Shown here piece after piece: positions 31,522-62,386 of a stretch of DNA of 64,000 bases; positions within the stretch are counted from its first letter, which is position 1, and the number at the start of each line of letters is the position of its first letter. The translations under genes were made by a program, and so were the position numbers. This stretch comes from Escherichia coli O127:H6 str. E2348/69 (GTDB taxonomy: Bacteria; Pseudomonadota; Gammaproteobacteria; Enterobacterales; Enterobacteriaceae), in assembly GCF_000026545.1 (NCBI RefSeq), contig NC_011601.1; one strand, written 5' to 3'. The notes beneath the pieces are model-generated. The model had not been told where the DNA came from. It did no database searches and saw only the letters and a list, made by a program, of their open reading frames with translations.

Positions 31522-33250
31522 TCAACTCAACGCCCCCATAATCTTCAACTCCAGCTCGTCCGGCACTTCGTTATACGACAGCACATGCAGCCCCGGCGCA
31601 AACAACCTTGCGTAGCGCGCCAGCAAGGGGCGCAGCTGCGGCGGCACCAGCAGCACTGGATCTTTCCCCGCCGCTTTCATCTGTTCCTTCACCTGCGGCA
31701 TCGTGATCTGAAACTGGTTGAGCATATTCGGGTCCACCGGCACGCTATCGAGCATCACTTTGCCGGCCTGTTGCGCCTGATTCACCACGTTGGTCAGCAG
31801 ATTTTCCAGCTCATTATTCAGCGTATACACCGTCAGCTCCTGCTTGCGAACGAACGGATGGGTTATGCTGCGCCGCAGCGCCAGGCGCACATCGGCCGCC
31901 AGCAGAATATGATCTTTAGTCACCGCACTACTGGCGACCAACACGGTGGCGATGGTGACGATATCGCGCAGGGAAACGCCTTCAGTCAGTAGCGCCCGGT
32001 ACACTTTCAGCAACTAGCTGTAATTGAGCGCCGCGCTCAAATCTTCCGCCAGTCGCGGTGCCATCGACGACAAACGGTTATGCAGCTGAGTAATATCGTC
32101 ATAGTTAAACAAATCAGGAATATAGCTGCGCACAATCTTATTCACATGGGTGGCAATTACGCTGGCGCTGTCGATCACCTGATACCCCATATTCAGCGCC
32201 TTCGCTTTCTGCGCGGGCTGAATCCAGGTGACCGGCATCCCGTACGCCGGGTCGTTCCCCAGCACGCCGTCTATCTCGCCGTAGGTTTCGCTGGAGGGCA
32301 GGGCCATCAGTTTATCTGCCGGAATATCCGCTTCATCAGCCTTAATGCCGTTGATGAAAATGGCGTACTGGCTGGGCTTGAGGCGGAAGTTTTCCCGAAT
32401 GCGGATCTCCGGCAGCAGCACGCCGTTGCCGTCAGAAATCACCTGCCGCACGCCGCGAATCCGCTGGGTGAGCGGGTTACCCTGTGCTTTGTCCACCAGC
32501 GCCACCAGCTTGTAGCCGAGGCTTAAACTGATGGGCTCGATCAGCGGAATGGTTTCCCAACTGACCTGTTGCTCGCTGGTTTCGGTGATGGTTCGGGTCA
32601 GCGTTTCGAGGCTTTTCTCCTCCGCCTCCGCCGCCTGCGGCTGTTTGCTCATCCGCCAGCCGGTAAAGCCAAGCAGGGCGCTGAACAGCAAAAACGGCAG
32701 GTGCGGCATCCCCGGCACCACCGCCAGCACAAACATAATTCCGGTAGCGGTGTAGAGCACCGACGGGCTTGCCAGCAACTGGTGGCGCACGTCATGGGCA
32801 ATATCGCCATTATCGCTGACGCGGGTGACGATAATCGCCGCTGCGGTGGAGAGCAGCAGGGAAGGGATCTGTGCCACCAGTCCGTCGCCGATGGTCATCA
32901 ACACATATTGCTGGAAGGCGGCGTCGGCGCTCAGGTTGTATTTGAAGATCCCGATACAGACGCCGCCGATCAGGTTGATCGCCAGAATCATCATCCCGGC
33001 GATGGCGTCTCCGCGCACAAACTTCGATGCCCCGTCCATCGCACCGTAGAAATCGGCCTCGCTGGCAACATCTTTACGCCGGGTTTGCGCCTGCGCCTGG
33101 TTGATCAATCCGGCGTTAAGATCGGCGTCAATCGCCATCTGTTTGCCGGGCATCGCGTCCAGGGTAAAGCGGGCAGAAACCTCGGAAATACGCTCGGCCC
33201 CTTTGGTGACGACAATAAAGTTGATAGTGAACAGCGTCAGTAAATCCGAG
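31522..33250 (-). pseudogene. lfhA: Flag-2 lateral flagellar export protein FlhA homologue remnant (N-terminally deleted, in-frame TAG)
   Basis: FlhA-like sequence (FTLDAMPGKQMAIDADLNAGLI) runs from about 33250 to 32017; TAG at 32014-32016 interrupts, FlhA-like C-terminus continues 32013..31522. Confidence 0.7.
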
Positions 33251-33991
33251 CGTGAAAGCATTATCGCCGCGCTGCACGGGCAGTCGATTTTCAATGGCGG
33301 CGGGCTGTCGCCGTTAAATAAAATCAGCCCGACGCATCCGCCGAAACCTGCCACCGTGGCGGTGCCGGAAGAGACGGAGAAAAAAGCGCGCGACGTCAAC
33401 GAGAAAACGGCGCTACTGAAGAAGAAGTCCGCCACTGAGCTTGGCGAGCTGGCGACCAGTATCAACACCATCGTCCGCGATGCGCATATGGAAGCCAATC
33501 TGGAGATGGAGATTGTTCCGCAGGGATTACGCGTGCTGATTAAAGATGACCAGAACCGCAATATGTTTGAACGCGGCAGCGCGAAGATTATGCCGTTCTT
33601 TAAAACGCTGCTGGTGGAACTCGCGCCGGTATTCGACTCGCTCGACAACAAAATTATTATTACCGGGCATACCGATGCGATGGCCTATAAAAGCAATATC
33701 TACAACAACTGGAACCTTTCGGGTGACCGCGCGCTTTCGGCTCGTCGGGTACTGGAAGAGGCCGGGATGCCGGAAGATAAAGTGATGCAGGTGAGCGCAA
33801 TGGCGGACCAGATGCTGCTGGACGCGAAAAATCCGCAAAGTGCGGGTAACCGGCGCATTGAGATTATGGTGCTCACCAAAAGCGCGTCCGATACGTTGTA
33901 TCAATATTTTGGTCAGCATGGGGATAAGGTGGTGCAGCCGCTGGTGAAAAAGCTGGATAAGCAGCAGGTGCTTTCGCACCGAACGCGTTAA
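33251..33991 (+). pseudogene. lafU: Flag-2 MotB-like LafU remnant (OmpA-like C-terminal domain retained)
   Basis: OmpA/MotB-like C-terminal domain (IIITGHTDAMAYKSNIYNNWNLSGDRALSARRVL); no N-terminal TM segment; abuts lfhA remnant. Confidence 0.6.
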
Positions 33992-34027
33992 ATGCTGAAT
34001 CTTTACGCATTTCTCAAACTCTGAAAT

Positions 34028-34047
34028 CACTGTATACTTTACCAGTG
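34028..34047 (+). promoter_or_regulatory. LexA SOS box upstream of dinB
   Basis: CACTGTATACTTTACCAGTG fits CTGT-N8-ACAG consensus, about 15 bp upstream of dinB start. Confidence 0.7.
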
Positions 34048-34061
34048 TTGAGAGGTGAGCA

Positions 34062-35117
34062 ATGCGTAAAATCATTCATGTGGATATGGACTGCTTTTTC
34101 GCCGCGGTGGAGATGCGCGACAATCCCGCCCTGCGCGATATCCCTATTGCTATTGGCGGCAGCCGCGAACGCCGGGGGGTGATCAGCACCGCCAATTATC
34201 CCGCGCGTAAATTTGGCGTGCGTAGCGCAATGCCAACCGGCATGGCGCTCAAACTGTGTCCGCATCTCACCTTGCTTCCAGGACGCTTTGACGCCTACAA
34301 AGAAGCGTCAAATCATATCCGCGAAATTTTCTCGCGCTATACCTCGCGCATTGAACCGTTATCACTGGATGAAGCCTATCTCGAGGTCACCGATAGTGTG
34401 CATTGCCACGGCTCCGCGACCCTCATCGCCCAGGAAATCCGCCAGACGATTTTCAACGAGCTGCAATTGACGGCATCTGCGGGCGTTGCGCCGGTAAAGT
34501 TTCTCGCCAAAATTGCTTCCGACATGAATAAACCCAACGGTCAGTTTGTGATTACTCCGGCTGAGGTTCCGGCATTTCTGCAAACCTTACCGCTGGCAAA
34601 AATTCCCGGCGTCGGCAAAGTCTCAGCGGCTAAACTGGAAGCTATGGGGCTACGAACCTGCGGTGATGTGCAAAAGTGTGATCTGGTGACTCTGCTCAAA
34701 CGTTTTGGCAAATTTGGCCGCATTTTGTGGGAGCGTAGTCAGGGCATTGACGAGCGCGATGTTAACAGCGAAAGGTTGCGAAAATCCGTCGGTGTAGAAC
34801 GTACGATGGCGGAAGATATTCATCACTGGTCTGAATGTGAAGCGATCATCGAGCGGCTTTACCCTGAACTGGAGCGTCGTTTGGCAAAGGTAAAACCTGA
34901 TTTGCTGATTGCCCGCCAGGGGGTGAAATTAAAGTTCGACGATTTTCAGCAAACTACTCAGGAGCACGTCTGGCCGCGGCTGAATAAATCTGCTCTAATC
35001 GCCACCGCGCGTAAAACCTGGGATGAACGCCGCGGCGGGCGCGGTGTGCGGCTGGTGGGGCTGCATGTGACGTTGCTTGACCCGCAAATGGAAAGACAAC
35101 TGGTGCTGGGATTATGA
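34062..35117 (+). CDS. dinB: DNA polymerase IV (Y-family translesion polymerase)
   Basis: 351-aa ORF starting MRKIIHVDMDCFFAAVEMRDNPALRDIPIAIGG. Confidence 0.9.
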   Translation: MRKIIHVDMDCFFAAVEMRDNPALRDIPIAIGGSRERRGVISTANYPARKFGVRSAMPTGMALKLCPHLTLLPGRFDAYKEASNHIREIFSRYTSRIEPLSLDEAYLEVTDSVHCHGSATLIAQEIRQTIFNELQLTASAGVAPVKFLAKIASDMNKPNGQFVITPAEVPAFLQTLPLAKIPGVGKVSAAKLEAMGLRTCGDVQKCDLVTLLKRFGKFGRILWERSQGIDERDVNSERLRKSVGVERTMAEDIHHWSECEAIIERLYPELERRLAKVKPDLLIARQGVKLKFDDFQQTTQEHVWPRLNKSALIATARKTWDERRGGRGVRLVGLHVTLLDPQMERQLVLGL

Positions 35118-35566
35118 ATAACATACAAATAAGAAACTATCAGCCTGGCGATTTTCAGCAACTATGCGCTATTTTCATTAGAGCGGTTACGATGACCGCC
35201 AGTCAGCATTATTCACCACAACAAATTGCCGCCTGGGCGCAGATTGACGAATCTCGCTGGAAGGAGAAACTCGCGAAATCACAAGTGCGGGTTGCAGTTA
35301 TTAATGCACAACCGGTTGGTTTTATCTCCCGCATTGAACATTATATCGATATGTTATTTGTTGACCCTGAATACACCCTCCGTGGGGTTGCCAGCGCTTT
35401 GTTAAAACCTTTGATTAAGTCTGAATCCGAACTTACGGTGGACGCCAGCATAACCGCAAAACCCTTTTTTGAACGTTATGGTTTTCAGACAGTTAAGCAG
35501 CAGCGCGTTGAATGCCGGGGAGCGTGGTTTACTAATTTTTATATGCGATATAAACCGCAACATTAA
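35114..35566 (+). CDS. yafP: GNAT-family acetyltransferase YafP
   Basis: 150-aa ORF; start overlaps dinB stop (ATGA); GNAT-like fold signature. Confidence 0.8.
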   Translation: MNNIQIRNYQPGDFQQLCAIFIRAVTMTASQHYSPQQIAAWAQIDESRWKEKLAKSQVRVAVINAQPVGFISRIEHYIDMLFVDPEYTLRGVASALLKPLIKSESELTVDASITAKPFFERYGFQTVKQQRVECRGAWFTNFYMRYKPQH

Positions 35567-35744
35567 ATCCAGCTTGCAAAGAAAATAACGCCCGCCTAGT
35601 ATGTGCGCGTTTTCTTATTCCACAAACTGCAAGGAGGTAAATCATGACAAATCCTTTATCAATGACTCTTTGCAGACCTTTCCAGGATTAATTCTTTTTT
35701 TCTTGCCCTGGATTCGTCTGCCATTTCCTGATTTTTATTCATAA

Positions 35745-36896
35745 ATGGAATGGTACATGGGCAAATATATTCGTCCCTTATCTGATGCGGTACTTACCAT
35801 CGCATCTGATGACCTGTGGATCGAGAGTTCAGCGATCCAACAATTACACACCACGGCAAATTTACCCGACATGCAACGCGTAGTAGGGATGCCAGATTTA
35901 CACCCCGGACGCGGCTATCCGATTGGCGCAGCGTTCTTCTCCGTAGGCCGTTTTTACCCGGCACTGGTCGGCAATGATATCGGCTGCGGTATGGCGCTAT
36001 GGCAAACAGATATTTTCGCGCGCAAATACAACGCCGATAAGTTTGAAAAGCGATTATCAGATCTGGATGACGTTGCTGAAGAAAGCTGGCTGGAGGAAAA
36101 CCTGCCGTCAGCATTTGCACAGCATCCGTGGCGCAGCTCGCTTGGCTCCATCGGTGGCGGTAACCACTTCGCAGAACTGCAACAGATTGATCAAATTATC
36201 GACGCGGAACTGTTTGCACTGGCTGGTCTGGATGCGCAGCATCTGCAACTGCTGGTTCATAGCGGCTCGAGGGGGTTGGGGCAGTCTATTTTACAGCGGC
36301 ATATTGCCTCGTTTTCGCATCATGGTTTGCCGGAAGGCAGTGACGACGCGCTAAGTTATATTGCGGAACATGATGATGCGCTGGCGTTTGCGCGTATTAA
36401 TCGCCAGCTGATCGCTTTGCGCATAATGCAACAAGTTAAGGCCAACGGAAATTCGGTTCTGGATGTGGCGCATAACTTTGTTAGCGCATGTCGAATCGGC
36501 GATCAACAGGGCTGGTTACACCGTAAAGGGGCTACGCCGGATGACAACGGTCTGGTGATTATTCCCGGTTCACGCGGTGATTACTCCTGGCTGGTTAAGC
36601 CTGTTGCGAACGAAAAAACGCTCCACTCGCTGGCGCATGGGGCAGGGCGTAAATGGGGGCGCACCGAGTGTAAAGGGCGTCTGGCAGCGAAATACACGGC
36701 GACGCAACTCTCACGTACTGAACTTGGCAGTCGGGTAATTTGTCGCGATAAACAACTCATCTTTGAAGAAGCGCCACAAGCCTATAAATCGGCTGAAAGT
36801 GTGGTGCAATGTCTGGTGCTGGCTGGGTTAATTATTCCTGTCGCGCGACTGCGTCCGGTGCTGACGCTCAAAAACAGTGGAGGGAAAAAAGGATGA
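35745..36896 (+). CDS. rtcB2: RtcB-family RNA ligase paralogue (RtcB2; full-length counterpart of K-12 ykfJ)
   Basis: 383-aa ORF with RtcB motifs [30 protein letters not shown]; stop overlaps prfH start (ATGA); true start may be 35757. Confidence 0.8.
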
Positions 36897-37474
36897 TCTT
36901 GCTACAACTCTCCTCAGCTCAGGGGCCGGAAGAATGTTGTCTCGCAGTGAAAAAGGCACTGGACAGGCTGATTAAAGAAGCTGCCCGACAAGACGTCGCG
37001 GTAACGGTGCTGGAAACAGAAACGGGTCGCTACTCTGACACACTACGTTCGGCGCTGGTTTCACTTGATGGCGACAACGCATGGGCTCTAAGCGAAAGCT
37101 GGTGCGGCACTATTCAGTGGATTTGTCCGAGTCCGTATCGGCCTCATCATGGGCGCAAAAACTGGTTTCTGGGCATTGGGCGTTTTACCGCTGATGAGCA
37201 GGAACAATCGGATGCAATCCGTTATGAGACGCTGCGTTCGTCGGGGCCGGGCGGTCAACATGTCAATAAAACCGACTCGGCGGTACGCGCCACGCATCTG
37301 GCATCCGGTATTAGCGTGAAGGTTCAGTCAGAGCGCAGTCAGCATGCTAACAAACGGCTGGCGCGATTACTGATTGCCTGGAAGCTGGAACAACAGCAAC
37401 AGGAAAATAGCGCGGCGCTGAAATCGCAGCGGCGAATGTTCCATCACCAGATTGAACGTGGCAACCCGCGATGA
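36893..37474 (+). CDS. prfH: Peptide chain release factor homologue PrfH (GGQ motif)
   Basis: Start [24 protein letters not shown] motif [15 protein letters not shown]; translationally coupled to rtcB2. Confidence 0.85.
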
Positions 37475-37563
37475 ACGTTTACAGGGATGGCTTTTATCGA
37501 AGGATAATGAAGGATGAAACTGCCGGAAGGCGATTAAACGCCATCCGGCAGCAAATCAAATAA

Positions 37564-39021
37564 TTACTTCGCCGGAATTTCTTTCAGCAGTTCAGTCAGA
37601 AGCGTCCAGTAATGACCAACGCTTTCGATATGAACTTGCTCATCCGGGGAGTGTGGACCGGTGATGGTTGGCCCGATAGACACCATGTCCATTTCCGGAT
37701 ACGGTTTTTTGAACAGACCACATTCGAGGCCCGCGTGGATAATCTGGATGTTCGGCGTTTTGTTGAACAGACGCTGATAGGTTTCACGTACCAGATGCAT
37801 TACCGGAGAGTTAGCGTCCGGCTGCCAGCCAGGATATGCGCCTTTTGCTTCTGTTTTCGCACCTGCCAGTTTACCCAGTGAATCCAGCATGCTCACTACG
37901 TAGTCTTTACCGCTGTCGATCAGAGAACGGATCAGGCAGTGAATTTCTACGTTATTGTCGGTCATGGTCACCACACCGACGTTCAGGGAGGTTTCGACCA
38001 CACCTTTTGCCACGTCGGAGTTGCGGATCACACCGTTCGGGGTGGCGTTCAGCAGACGAATAAAGGTATCGCGAGATGTCGCCGTTAATGCAGCTTTGTC
38101 GTTCGCTACGGAGTCCAGCAGCAATGCCAGATTCTTCTCTTTTTCTGCCAGTTCGTTTTTCAGGATCTCCTGATAGGTATCCACCAGAGATTTCAGGGCG
38201 TCGACTTTATCAGCTGCGACAGCAATGGTCGCAAAGGCTTCACGCGGGATGGCGTTACGCAGTGTGCCGCCGTTGAAATCAATAAGACGCAGGTCCAGTT
38301 CTTCTGCATGACCCGCCAGGAAGCGCACCAACAGTTTGTTGGCATTACCCAGGCCAACGTGGATTTCACCGCCGGAGTGACCGCCTTTCAGACCTTTTAA
38401 GGTTAACTTGAAGGTTTCAAAACCAGCTGGAACCGCTTCACGATCTAAATGCAGGTTGGAGGTGAAGTCGATACCTCCCGCACAACCCATGTAGATTTCA
38501 CCTTCTTCTTCGGAGTCGGTGTTAATCAGAATATCAGCCTGCAACCAGTTGCTCTGTAAGCCAAAAGCACCGTCCATACCGGCTTCTTCGGTCATGGTCA
38601 GCAGCACTTCCAGCGGGCCGTGAACCACGTTTTCGTCAGCCAGAACCGCCAGTGCAGAGGCCATACCAATGCCGTTATCCGCACCCAGCGTGGTGCCGCG
38701 TGCTTTAACCCATTCGCCATCAATATAAGGCTGGATAGGATCTTTGGTGAAGTCATGCACGGTGTCGTTATTTTTTTGCGGCACCATATCGAGGTGGGCC
38801 TGCAAGACGACCGGTTTACGATTTTCCATACCTGCGGTAGCAGGTTTACGAATCAGGATATTACCTACCTGATCGCGTTCGACATGGAAACCTTTCTCTT
38901 TTGCCCAACCAACAATGTATTCAGCGAGTTGCTCTTCATGATAGGACGGGTGAGGAATAGAACAGATTTTGGCAAAAATATCCCACAGCGGCTGTGGAGA
39001 TAATTGAGACAGTTCAGACAC
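37564..39021 (-). CDS. pepD: Cytosol non-specific dipeptidase PepD (aminoacyl-histidine dipeptidase)
   Basis: 485-aa ORF; M20-family metallopeptidase; synteny. Confidence 0.9.
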   Translation of the reverse strand: MSELSQLSPQPLWDIFAKICSIPHPSYHEEQLAEYIVGWAKEKGFHVERDQVGNILIRKPATAGMENRKPVVLQAHLDMVPQKNNDTVHDFTKDPIQPYIDGEWVKARGTTLGADNGIGMASALAVLADENVVHGPLEVLLTMTEEAGMDGAFGLQSNWLQADILINTDSEEEGEIYMGCAGGIDFTSNLHLDREAVPAGFETFKLTLKGLKGGHSGGEIHVGLGNANKLLVRFLAGHAEELDLRLIDFNGGTLRNAIPREAFATIAVAADKVDALKSLVDTYQEILKNELAEKEKNLALLLDSVANDKAALTATSRDTFIRLLNATPNGVIRNSDVAKGVVETSLNVGVVTMTDNNVEIHCLIRSLIDSGKDYVVSMLDSLGKLAGAKTEAKGAYPGWQPDANSPVMHLVRETYQRLFNKTPNIQIIHAGLECGLFKKPYPEMDMVSIGPTITGPHSPDEQVHIESVGHYWTLLTELLKEIPAK

Positions 39022-61465: not shown

Positions 61466-62386
61466 TTACAAATGTGTTTTGTAAAAAGGAATTAATTTAT
61501 CGAGCGCCTGTTTCACAGGTTCTGGCTTATCATACAGGTCGTAATGTGAATAACCTTCAACCACGACTAACTCTTTATGTTTTGAGGCAGCGCGGCCAAT
61601 AATTTCGCAGCCGTCACGGTAGGCACCAAATGCGCCCACTCTATCGCCCACCACAACCATTATTGGTTGAGTTAACAGGACTTCTGCAAGATGAAATGCA
61701 TCCCAACCCACGGCAACAGTCTGATGTGAGAATAGCGAACGATTTACCCCATTAGGTGCACAGCCTCGTGGCGAACGATAATATTCTGTGGCTTCAAAAA
61801 GGTCTATTTCTGTTAATTCCGCTTCAAGAGCTGCATCCGGAGAAGAGGGGAGTAAATCATCTACGCGAAGTTTTGCGCCGTTAGCTTCGTCTGTTCTTTG
61901 TTGCGCCATTGCTTCGAGTGCTCCGATAGGATTAAACGCTGTAAATCCCTCACGCATAAGACGCCCGTAGTTTGCACCCGTGACAGTACCAATAGCTTTA
62001 ATTCGACGTTCTGTCATTGCGGCATTAATGGCATATCCACCTCCACCACAAATACCCAGTACACCAATACGCCCGGCATCAACGTAAGGTAAGGTGGTAA
62101 GGTAATCAACGACAATGCTGAAGTCTTTTACTCGCATTGTTGGATCTTCCAGATAACGCGGTTCCCCACCGCTGCTTCCCTGAAAACTGGCATCAAAAGC
62201 AATGACGATAAAGCCAGCTTTTGCCAGGGCGGCACCATACACACTACCCGATGTCTGTTCTTTGCAGCTTCCAATTGGATGGGCGCTGATAATGGCAGGA
62301 TACTTTTTTTCACTATTAAAATCGTCAGGGAAATAGATATCAGCAGCTATATCCCAGTAAGTGTGTTTTATCGAAACAGTTTTCAT
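61466..62386 (-). CDS. Alpha/beta-fold hydrolase
   Basis: 306-aa ORF with nucleophile elbow-like GICGGGGY and hydrolase-like architecture. Confidence 0.7.
   Translation of the reverse strand: MKTVSIKHTYWDIAADIYFPDDFNSEKKYPAIISAHPIGSCKEQTSGSVYGAALAKAGFIVIAFDASFQGSSGGEPRYLEDPTMRVKDFSIVVDYLTTLPYVDAGRIGVLGICGGGGYAINAAMTERRIKAIGTVTGANYGRLMREGFTAFNPIGALEAMAQQRTDEANGAKLRVDDLLPSSPDAALEAELTEIDLFEATEYYRSPRGCAPNGVNRSLFSHQTVAVGWDAFHLAEVLLTQPIMVVVGDRVGAFGAYRDGCEIIGRAASKHKELVVVEGYSHYDLYDKPEPVKQALDKLIPFYKTHL

Follow-up and report, generated by a model that had tools for sequence, protein, structure and literature searches.

We found that a 64,000-nucleotide stretch of Escherichia coli E2348/69 (O127:H6) DNA, referred to here as the window, contains the RtcB2-PrfH ribosome rescue and repair operon preceded by a homologue of the Pseudomonas aeruginosa PA5471.1 leader. 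We consider it very likely that the locus is best explained by two things jointly, the known RtcB2-PrfH operon and expression of that operon under its own promoter by way of a PA5471.1-type leader switch, the latter of which we infer. The module itself has already been characterized, and nothing about it is new as such. Induction of the operon is not a subject of the E. coli RtcB2-PrfH papers that we consulted, and a homologue of the PA5471.1 leader suggests a specific mechanism of induction that can be tested. E2348/69 is a widely used EPEC reference strain.

On the plus strand, rtcB2 (35757-36896) encodes a full-length, 379-aa 3'-phosphate/5'-OH RNA ligase of the RtcB2 subfamily (NCBIfam, Pfam RtcB and RefSeq WP_000521585.1), and prfH (36893-37474) encodes release factor H, which is 193 aa in E2348/69 and has its GGQ at residues 120-122. 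Both genes are annotated by RefSeq in E2348/69. The genes overlap by 4 nt (ATGA, 36893-36896), as proposed in a preliminary description of this DNA, and a GGAGGG Shine-Dalgarno lies 8 nt 5' of the prfH ATG. The motifs named in that description for the RtcB-like protein and for PrfH (GGQ) are all present. It also gave the ligase a 383-aa reading frame at 35745-36896; the open reading frame exists, but 35745 is not the start of rtcB2. We place the start at 35757 since this is the RefSeq-annotated start, the NCBIfam model begins at residue 5 of the 383-aa frame, the ATG at 35745 is absent from Citrobacter, and the published H294 numbering is compatible only with a 379-aa protein.

The RtcB2-PrfH pair of E. 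coli ATCC 25922 has been described by biochemistry, in vivo protection against colicin E3 and a cryo-EM structure, PDB 7SA4 (Tian et al. 2022, PNAS, PMC9304027; Maviza et al. 2022, PMC9223846). Peptide release by PrfH is confined to 70S ribosomes cleaved between A1493 and G1494, RtcB2 mends the cut 30S subunit and not tRNAs, and together they guard cells against colicin-E3-like toxins (PMC9304027; PMC9223846; PMC13166195; further mechanism literature, PMC12829566). Reading the locus as a damaged-ribosome rescue and 16S rRNA repair pair, made of an RtcB ligase and a release-factor homologue, was therefore correct according to these three studies, while calling it a candidate system whose natural stress is open is out of date given the published toxin protection. 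Carried over from the steps that others established on near-identical E. coli proteins, a colicin-E3-type or CdiA-CT nuclease would cut 16S rRNA between A1493 and G1494 and stall the ribosome, the GGQ loop of PrfH would hydrolyze the peptidyl-tRNA so that the 70S ribosome can be disassembled, and RtcB2 would then seal the 16S rRNA again once the 30S subunit is free. The E2348/69 operon shares with that of ATCC 25922 the species, the locus, the two overlapping genes, the 379-aa RtcB2 frame, in which H294 and every metal ligand are kept, and the reported PrfH rRNA contacts; it differs in that PrfH stops at codon 194 rather than 205.

RtcB2 scored far above the curated NCBIfam cut-offs (639.6 bits for PRK09588, cut-off 407; 618.7 for TIGR03073 'release_rtcB', cut-off 271.8), its match spans positions 1-378 of the 379 in the PRK09588 model, and prfH is immediately downstream, which places it in the RtcB2 subfamily; the Pfam profile RtcB (PF01139) matches in agreement with NCBIfam. 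Residues D74, C77, N136, H137, H168, H239 and H294 align with D95, C98, N202, H203, H234, H329 and H404 of Pyrococcus horikoshii RtcB, where D95, C98, H203, H234 and H329 are two-metal ligands, N202 contacts GTP and H404 is guanylylated (PMC9745838). All metal, GTP-contact and nucleophile positions of the family are kept. The preliminary description had held that missing metal-binding His/Cys residues or a shortened frame would speak against the assignment, and we found a full-length protein with all catalytic residues aligned. RtcB2 of E2348/69 should thus be catalytically competent. It would also be expected to ligate 16S rRNA at A1493/G1494 and not to act on tRNA, a specificity carried over from the ATCC 25922 protein by way of other E. 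coli alleles (approximately 97% identity to FDAARGOS_536) rather than the ATCC 25922 RtcB2 sequence itself. Canonical RtcB proteins (E. coli RtcB1 of rtcBA and P. horikoshii RtcB) share with RtcB2 the fold family, the two-metal site and the His-GMP nucleophile; RtcB2 is approximately 100 residues shorter than the P. horikoshii protein, and its substrate is 16S rRNA in place of tRNA (PMC9304027). Among the PADLOC-DB anti-phage models, no family matched RtcB2 or PrfH at E <= 0.001.

PrfH scored 321.2 bits on TIGR03072, likewise far above its cut-off (166.65), has its GGQ within an RF-1 domain at residues 106-189, and aligns to RF2 only from approximately RF2 residue 115 on, without RF domain 1, which identifies it as release factor H. 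The GGQ-containing domain 3, whose absence would have counted against the preliminary reading, is therefore there. PrfH and RF2 share this domain and a related domain 2/4, while PrfH lacks RF domain 1 and reads cleaved rRNA instead of a stop codon (PMC9304027). The E2348/69 protein is identical to chain 8 of PDB 7SA4 at 190 of 193 positions. Residues R83, H86, R88, R189, R52, S53, H184, R181, K89, N90 and H85 have been assigned to the A1493-3'-phosphate, C1914, h18 and S12 (PMC9304027), and all of these, together with Q122, are kept.

The operon is nevertheless not the intact two-gene module of the preliminary description: rtcB2 is full length, but prfH is cut by a premature TGA at codon 194 (37472-37474, plus strand). 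This codon is CGA in the closest relatives and CGG in K-12, one or the other in other E. coli. Downstream of the TGA, 10 codons (TFTGMAFIEG) and the original TAA are still in frame at 37475-37507. A length of 204 aa is found in the characterized E. coli PrfH and in each of the other E. coli alleles examined, so that PrfH of E2348/69 lacks residues 194-204 (RTFTGMAFIEG) and covers positions 1-192 of the 200 in TIGR03072, leaving its C-terminal rRNA-recognition end incomplete. An exact 60-mer around the TGA occurs in only three genomes of 5426, all O127:H6, and E2348/69 PrfH appears, from these sequence comparisons, to be a lineage-specific allele without its last 11 residues.

We asked what this stop means for function. 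One reading is that the operon is half decayed, with the stop destabilizing the rRNA-recognition domain, PrfH inactive and only RtcB2 working, either by mending free 30S subunits or in dependence on other rescue factors. We regard this as quite possible, leaning somewhat against it. The lost segment holds a near-invariant F196 (at least 90% conserved in the homologue alignment) and the mostly conserved R194 and G198, it is predicted to form a beta-strand at 194-197 with a pLDDT of approximately 90, and it belongs to residues 180-204, which were assigned to the rRNA-recognition domain of EcPrfH (PMC9304027). No homologue in the aligned set stops before F196, and even the shortest natural PrfH proteins examined, those of Klebsiella at 199 aa, keep this residue. 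Furthermore, over-expressed RtcB2 protects cells by itself (PMC9223846; PMC13166195), so a loss of PrfH would be tolerable. However, the residues that contact A1493P, C1914, h18 and S12 all lie within 1-189 and are intact, the rest of prfH shows seven synonymous and three non-synonymous codon differences with no further lesions, the allele persists in three assemblies from the lineage, and some UGA read-through could occur. Since its PrfH lacks the conserved C-terminal strand, E2348/69 may differ in toxin sensitivity, and findings made in this strain with colicin E3 or on contact-dependent inhibition (CDI) may not match those in ATCC 25922. The natural 193-aa PrfH could also serve as a structure-function probe for that strand.

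Upstream of rtcB2 we found a set of elements, all on the plus strand, that would provide the operon with its own control. Promoter-like hexamers, TTGCAA-17 nt-TAGTAT (35574-35602), were located by pattern search and match 8 of 12 consensus positions, the predicted -10 element being at 35597-35602; a putative promoter of the form TTGC(A/G)N-17-TAnnAT was seen by eye upstream in most other genera compared, with a pattern match in P. aeruginosa. A generic promoter and terminator scan returned no more sites than in shuffled sequence and none on the plus strand between yafP and rtcB2, the 8-of-12 hexamers falling below its threshold. Downstream of the hexamers lies a segment, A (CUGCAAGGAGG, 35627-35637), that holds the Shine-Dalgarno of the leader (AAGGAGG, 35631-35637), which in 11/11 protein-anchored loci precedes the leader ATG by 7 nt. 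The leader ORF (15 codons and TAA, MTNPLSMTLCRPFQD, 35644-35691) is a homologue of P. aeruginosa PA5471.1. It occurs in each of the 11 loci located by way of their PrfH proteins, is directly followed by rtcB2 in 41 of 120 matches of a leader pattern search, and carries no RefSeq annotation in E2348/69 or K-12. Inside the ORF, segment B (CUCUUUGCAGAC, 35666-35677) can pair with A or with C. Across the 11 unbiased loci its UUUGCAG never varies, while the frame of translation does (LCR in one, FAG in the other), which puts the conservation at the RNA level. Folding indicates two alternative partners for segments C and D (UUCGUCUGCCAUUUC, 35713-35727), namely B (through 35716-35721) and the ribosome-binding site of rtcB2, and C/D are predicted to sequester segment E (GGAAUGGUACAUGGG, 35747-35761), which comprises the rtcB2 ribosome-binding region and AUG. 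Compared with Rfam at E <= 1, the interval 33500-38000 showed no known RNA family on the leader and gave only two sub-threshold snoRNA-like chance matches. Our literature search found no paper tying a PA5471.1-type leader to E. coli rtcB2-prfH, nor the leader peptide sequence.

We hypothesized that these elements form a four-segment RNA switch that governs expression of the operon from a promoter of its own. In this in silico model, A would pair with B and C/D would mask the ribosome-binding site and AUG of rtcB2 when the RNA is free or the leader is fully translated (off), and a ribosome held at the leader start would free B to pair with C and expose the rtcB2 start (on). Consistent with the off state, the minimum-energy fold of the free RNA pairs A (35627-35636) with B in 10 of 11 anchored loci, and E is paired to C/D in 10/11 loci when the RNA is free and in 2/11 when a ribosome is placed on the leader AUG. 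The B:C helix has 92.7% of cells paired, three covarying pairs and a score reached by none of 500 shuffles, though for 38 of the 49 sequences in the alignment the search pattern had itself dictated four of the seven pairs. RNAalifold on the 49 leaders recovered B:C only. By eye, the D:E helix shows a compensatory change: E. coli has GGAAUGG/CCAUUUCC where other genera have GGAUUGG/CCA(C/A)AUCC. Between clades, insertions and deletions prevent alignment of the inner stem and of the D:E helix. Since segment B is invariant, the A:B helix cannot display covariation and is suggested by conservation and folding predictions only. The predicted gain in accessibility of the rtcB2 ribosome-binding site is modest, from 0.26 to 0.45 in E. 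coli, and is clade-dependent, being absent from several Pseudomonas sequences in the same calculation. Given these models, we consider the case evenly balanced that rtcB2-prfH of E. coli and other Enterobacterales is switched on by a leader sensing ribosomes held at its start. Ribosomes damaged by colicin E3 reportedly stall on start codons (PMC13166195), and because of this we propose that the very lesion which the operon mends may also be its direct inducer.

Given that dinB and yafP lie immediately upstream, with the LexA box of dinB at 34030-34045, we weighed whether the pair belongs to the SOS regulon, sharing with dinB-yafP a transcript that starts at the dinB promoter under LexA control and responds to DNA damage. 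The neighbors are as first described: rtcB2-prfH is on the same strand as yafP, 178 nt downstream, and with no terminator-like site detected on the plus strand between yafP and rtcB2 some read-through could occur. The order dinB-(yafP)-rtcB2-prfH-pepD-gpt-frsA-crl is kept in Salmonella, Klebsiella and Citrobacter, and in Enterobacter, Cronobacter and Kosakonia as far as the fetched flank goes, to frsA; the position between dinB(-yafP) and pepD is ancestral in Enterobacteriaceae. Against the SOS reading, the leader-rtcB2-prfH unit stands behind unrelated genes in Pragia, Pseudomonas (P. aeruginosa included) and Entomomonas with promoter-like hexamers of its own, from which we take the dinB-yafP link to be positional. 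Furthermore, the intergenic region between yafP and rtcB2 contains no LexA-type core (CTGTAT-N7-CAG), the sole other match in the window being at 61522-61537, approximately 24 kb off, and the homologous P. aeruginosa operon is reported to answer ribosome stalling, not DNA damage. SOS control is thus improbable; the adjacency is conserved synteny and we found no evidence of SOS control in it.

The PA5471.1-armZ (PA5471)-PA5470 operon of P. aeruginosa has the same three parts as the E. coli locus, namely a short leader ORF, an RtcB2-family gene and prfH, and ArmZ is 61% identical to RtcB2 of E2348/69. The P. aeruginosa leader (MIQFSTLCRLRLA) aligns with that of E. coli, and the two share the Shine-Dalgarno context and the UUUGCAG, CUGCC and GGAUUGG-AUGGGCAA motifs. 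It fits the published PA5471.1 (13 aa, Q3, F4, approximately 250 bp upstream). Overall, the E. coli element has what marks a PA5471.1-type leader: its ORF is short, has a strong Shine-Dalgarno and immediately precedes an RtcB2-family gene, and it has motifs in common with PA5471.1. The two leaders differ in length, 15 codons in E. coli against 13, and in distance to the ligase gene, 113 nt against 254 nt; the E. coli spacing is shorter because it lacks an insertion of approximately 140 nt in the B-C loop. They may also differ in mechanism. As later papers recount it, PA5471.1 senses stalled ribosomes by transcription attenuation or termination (Morita et al. 2006, 2009, via PMC3516279, PMC12057347, PMC13041342), whereas in E. 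coli the predicted fold would block the ribosome-binding site and AUG, that is, act on translation, and a terminator scan detected no intrinsic terminator between leader and rtcB2.

ArmZ is described as an RtcB-like anti-repressor of MexZ, and this, with the identity and the common operon and leader architecture, could suggest that the E. coli protein is mainly a regulator and not an rRNA ligase, which is very improbable given that a near-identical E. coli RtcB2 allele ligates cut 16S rRNA and needs H294 in vivo (PMC9304027) and that the catalytic residues are all kept in E2348/69 RtcB2 and in ArmZ too. The leader switch would, if true, join MexXY antibiotic induction through ArmZ in Pseudomonas with ribosome repair in E. 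coli, a connection that we did not find made in the literature searched. We know of no link to MexZ or MexXY in E. coli.

We questioned how unusual the E2348/69 copy is. An intact copy had been called notable; at least 80% of rtcB2-prfH is present in 2709 of 5426 complete E. coli genomes, so about half carry a near-full-length copy and having one is unremarkable. The description of ykfJ and prfH as truncated in K-12 was borne out by genome comparison: these pseudogenes (b0235, b0236) are deletion remnants that lack 1027 bp across the gene junction, corresponding to 35962-36988 of the window. K-12 keeps the locus, and conservation is 100% in the leader, in the first approximately 205 nt of rtcB2 and in the last approximately 500 nt of prfH, which in K-12 has a full 3' end with CGG at codon 194. 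It differs from E2348/69 further by a 127-nt repeat-like insertion between leader segments D and E and by yafN-yafO between dinB and yafP. The K-12 remnant ykfJ has been reported to be inducible by 4-azaleucine, which speaks for the leader model.

RtcB2 of E2348/69 has 10 amino acid substitutions relative to FDAARGOS_536, its closest relative among the genomes fetched, and the same 10 sites differ also from two other E. coli alleles compared. We considered whether so many private substitutions reflect relaxed selection and rejected this, given 26 synonymous and 10 non-synonymous codon differences in rtcB2 from its nearest relative, which is consistent with purifying selection, and given that divergence runs from yafP to pepD. 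Across this tract E2348/69 has diverged by 1.2-4.4%, a pattern that suggests a diverged or recombined tract.

We found that the module read in the preliminary description as an RtcB2-PrfH pair was rightly identified. The RNA ligase scores 639.6 bits against PRK09588 (cut-off 407) and 618.7 bits against TIGR03073 'release_rtcB' (cut-off 271.8), PrfH scores 321.2 bits against TIGR03072 (cut-off 166.65), and Pfam agrees with these NCBIfam assignments for both proteins. PrfH is identical at 190/193 positions to chain 8 of PDB 7SA4 ('Peptide chain release factor H'), and all motifs quoted beforehand are found in the two proteins. A 2006 paper described the operon and the deletion it has suffered in K-12 (PMC1586002). 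In E. coli ATCC 25922, peptide release by PrfH is confined to 70S ribosomes with a cut between A1493 and G1494, and cryo-EM at 2.55 Å shows the factor in the ribosomal A site. RtcB2 of that strain repairs the cut 30S subunit rather than cut tRNAs, and the pair reverses the toxicity of colicin-E3-like toxins, for which Q122 and H294 are needed (PMC9304027). Colicin E3 resistance is lost in knock-outs (PMC9223846), and follow-up papers appeared in 2026 (PMC12829566, PMC13166195). Given this work, calling the module a 'candidate' system whose natural stress is 'open' is out of date. For a system that is both known and common, fresh interest is limited to a strain-specific nonsense codon in prfH and an unannotated leader of the PA5471.1 type.

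We determined how widely the module occurs by nucleotide matching, in which E2348/69 itself matched at 100% identity over 35567-37474. A match was present in 5415 of 5426 complete E. coli genomes, and 2709 of the 5426 carry at least 80% of the query, so an intact copy is not the notable rarity it had been taken for. The remaining matching genomes mostly hold a K-12-type remnant; the truncation noted for K-12 is real and removes 1027 bp, equivalent to window 35962-36988. RefSeq gives the order lafU, dinB, yafP, 'RNA ligase RtcB family protein', prfH, pepD (opposite strand), gpt, frsA and crl in E2348/69. The module lies at the same place, between dinB(-yafP) and pepD-gpt-frsA-crl, in Salmonella, Klebsiella and Citrobacter, and gene order matches up to the end of the fetched flank in Enterobacter, Cronobacter and Kosakonia; the module is therefore ancestral at the dinB-pepD locus.

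The proposed 383-aa ligase ORF exists at 35745-36896, although translation from the conserved start, its second ATG (35757), yields 379 aa. This start is the one RefSeq uses, the NCBIfam match sets in only at residue 5 of the longer reading frame, Citrobacter lacks the first ATG (35745), and the published catalytic His294 lands on a histidine only with 379-aa numbering. Alignment to canonical RtcB showed that the two-metal ligands and the His nucleophile, as defined in Pyrococcus horikoshii RtcB, are all kept: D74, C77, N136, H137, H168, H239 and H294 correspond to D95, C98, N202, H203, H234, H329 and H404.

As previously claimed, rtcB2 overlaps prfH (36893-37474, plus strand) by ATGA, with a GGAGGG Shine-Dalgarno sequence 8 nt before the prfH ATG. 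PrfH retains Q122 of the GGQ motif and all residues reported to contact the cleaved A1493-3'-phosphate, C1914, h18, S12 and C1054. The module had been called intact, which holds for these residues and the RtcB2 catalytic residues but not for the length of prfH, which stops at a TGA at codon 194 (37472-37474, plus strand). By sequence comparison this codon is CGA in E. coli FDAARGOS_536, which of the genomes retrieved is the nearest relative, and CGG in K-12; the CGA indicates a single C-to-T transition. Beyond the TGA, ten leftover codons continue in frame up to the original TAA, and the change removes 11 conserved C-terminal residues, leaving 193 aa compared with 204 aa in the structurally characterised EcPrfH and the other E. 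coli alleles examined. An exact 60-mer around the stop occurs in 3 of the 5426 complete E. coli genomes, all O127:H6. When 19 PrfH sequences spanning several genera were aligned, conservation reached at least 90% at F196 and was less strict, though still present in most, at R194 and G198; even the shortest natural forms among them, from Klebsiella (199 aa), have F196. Residues 194-197 are predicted to form a beta-strand (pLDDT approximately 90) in an AlphaFold2 model of 204-aa PrfH (mean pLDDT 82). The published C-terminal deletion of CgPrfH takes away a different, more distal tail (PMC12829566) and therefore does not settle the effect of this truncation. We consider it possible, if somewhat doubtful, that the 193-aa protein is impaired. 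Loss of PrfH would be tolerable since over-expressed RtcB2 alone protects cells (PMC9223846, PMC13166195).

Between yafP and the conserved rtcB2 start lie 190 nt containing a 15-codon leader ORF, MTNPLSMTLCRPFQD (35644-35691, plus strand), preceded at a distance of 7 nt by the consensus Shine-Dalgarno sequence AAGGAGG; RefSeq annotates the ORF in neither E2348/69 nor K-12. We examined 11 loci from E. coli, Salmonella, Klebsiella, Citrobacter, Enterobacter, Cronobacter, Kosakonia, Pragia, Pseudomonas, Entomomonas and one further contig, which were reached via their PrfH proteins and are thus unbiased regarding the leader. All 11 contain a leader ORF of 13-18 codons with the same Shine-Dalgarno spacing. 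UUUGCAG is invariant within this ORF, CUGCC follows further downstream, and GGA(A/U)UGG-N3-AUGGGCA marks the rtcB2 start in every one; several have unrelated genes upstream. Scanning species-representative genomes for the leader pattern gave at least 120 matches. Among the matches listed, 41 were followed directly by an RtcB2 homologue from residue 1, with identities as low as 50%, and those without an adjoining RtcB2 were at about the chance level estimated beforehand. Most leaders translate UUUGCAG in the frame that gives Leu-Cys-Arg, but four use the one that gives Phe-Ala-Gly, so conservation lies in the RNA and not the peptide. The leader region (35574-35761) is kept across Enterobacterales, Pseudomonas and other proteobacteria.

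We folded the leader with ViennaRNA, as free RNA and with a ribosome footprint on the leader AUG, for the 11 unbiased loci and for all 50 leaders. In free E. coli RNA, the leader Shine-Dalgarno segment A (35627-35636) is predicted to be sequestered by segment B (35666-35675), a pairing found in 10/11 and 41/50 leaders, while segments C/D (35713-35727) cover the rtcB2 ribosome-binding region and AUG, segment E (35747-35761; 10/11 and 37/50). With the footprint, B (35672-35677) would pair with C (35716-35721; 10/11 and 35/50) and the rtcB2 start would be released, C/D pairing with it in 2/11 and 21/50. These folds give a consistent picture, in which the leader probably works as a four-segment RNA switch. 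The alignment of 49 leaders has 92.7% paired cells and three covarying pairs for the B:C helix, a score reached in 0 of 500 shuffles; a caveat is that for 38 of the 49, the pattern used in the search had already fixed four of the helix's pairs. Such a leader might respond to ribosomes held at its first codons, which would fit the reported accumulation of colicin-E3-cut ribosomes at start codons (PMC13166195). The predicted gain in accessibility of the rtcB2 ribosome-binding site is modest, and several Pseudomonas sequences have none. The loop between D and E carries an insertion polymorphism after window 35736: K-12 has a 127-nt element (about 2833-2960 of locus L003), E. coli ETEC4091 has a 56-nt short form built from both its ends, and E2348/69 has neither; the pairing segments are untouched. 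The K-12 element may resemble the ERIC/IRU intergenic repeat.

A counterpart of this leader is known from P. aeruginosa. The locus of its PrfH (PA5470) encodes an RtcB2 homologue 61% identical to that of E2348/69 with all catalytic motifs, and 254 nt upstream lies a 13-codon leader, MIQFSTLCRLRLA, sharing the E. coli leader motifs. This fits PA5471.1, which summaries of the published work (PMC3516279, PMC12057347, PMC13041342) describe as a 13-aa peptide with Gln3 and Phe4 about 250 bp upstream of armZ. According to these summaries, PA5471.1 translation senses stalled ribosomes and attenuates armZ-PA5470, whose expression is activated by early stop codons in the leader, Q3Am among them, ArmZ falls in the PRK09588 cluster, and K-12 ykfJ is inducible by 4-azaleucine. 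The E. coli leader therefore has a known regulatory element as its homologue. It goes unmentioned in the papers examined on E. coli RtcB2-PrfH, and a full-text literature search returned nothing on a leader peptide combined with rtcB2 or on the peptide sequence. The Pseudomonas model, as summarised, is transcriptional, whereas the E. coli folds cover or release the rtcB2 start, and a terminator scan detected none around the E. coli leader. In P. aeruginosa, the corresponding region (1640-1830 of that locus) differs from E. coli and other Pseudomonas species by an insertion of approximately 140 nt in the B-C loop, which may be the site of the published terminators.

We questioned whether the SOS-linked dinB-yafP neighbourhood noted previously reflects shared regulation. 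The genes do adjoin, dinB has a LexA box (34030-34045), and read-through from dinB-yafP into rtcB2 is possible; however, promoter-like hexamers at 35574-35602 travel with the leader-rtcB2-prfH unit, and no LexA-type core match (CTGTAT-N7-CAG) lies between yafP and rtcB2, the only other one in the window being at 61522-61537, approximately 24 kb away. The link therefore looks positional. dinB and yafP overlap by ATGA (35114-35117) because E2348/69 lacks the yafN-yafO toxin-antitoxin pair that separates them in K-12 (compare locus L002, 2844-3538). This pair is also missing in two other E. coli genomes with intact modules, and FDAARGOS_536 has yafO and an intact module.

A GC-rich inverted repeat, CTGCCGGAAGGCG...CGCCATCCGGCAG (37520-37551), between the convergent prfH and pepD is probably their shared transcription stop; the terminator scan missed it because no T-run follows on the plus strand. 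Divergence from FDAARGOS_536 across 35114-39021 is 4.4% in yafP, 3.3% in rtcB2, 1.9% in prfH and 1.2% in pepD, but only 0-0.2% in the neighbouring gpt and frsA. Most changes in the yafP-pepD tract are synonymous, and it has the look of an old or imported allele rather than of decay. The module also occurs in 22 plasmid-collection records, eight of them typed conjugative. Several of the records measure 0.8-4.9 Mb and probably represent misfiled chromosomes or chromids; a few measure 24-127 kb, and with the conjugative-typed records they make it possible that this chromosomal region is occasionally mobilised. Finally, window 32014-33991 holds a remnant of the lateral-flagella (Flag-2) locus, in which lafU (plus strand) accompanies a minus-strand pseudogene that is FlhA-like and interrupted by an internal stop, as RefSeq annotates them in E2348/69 and K-12.
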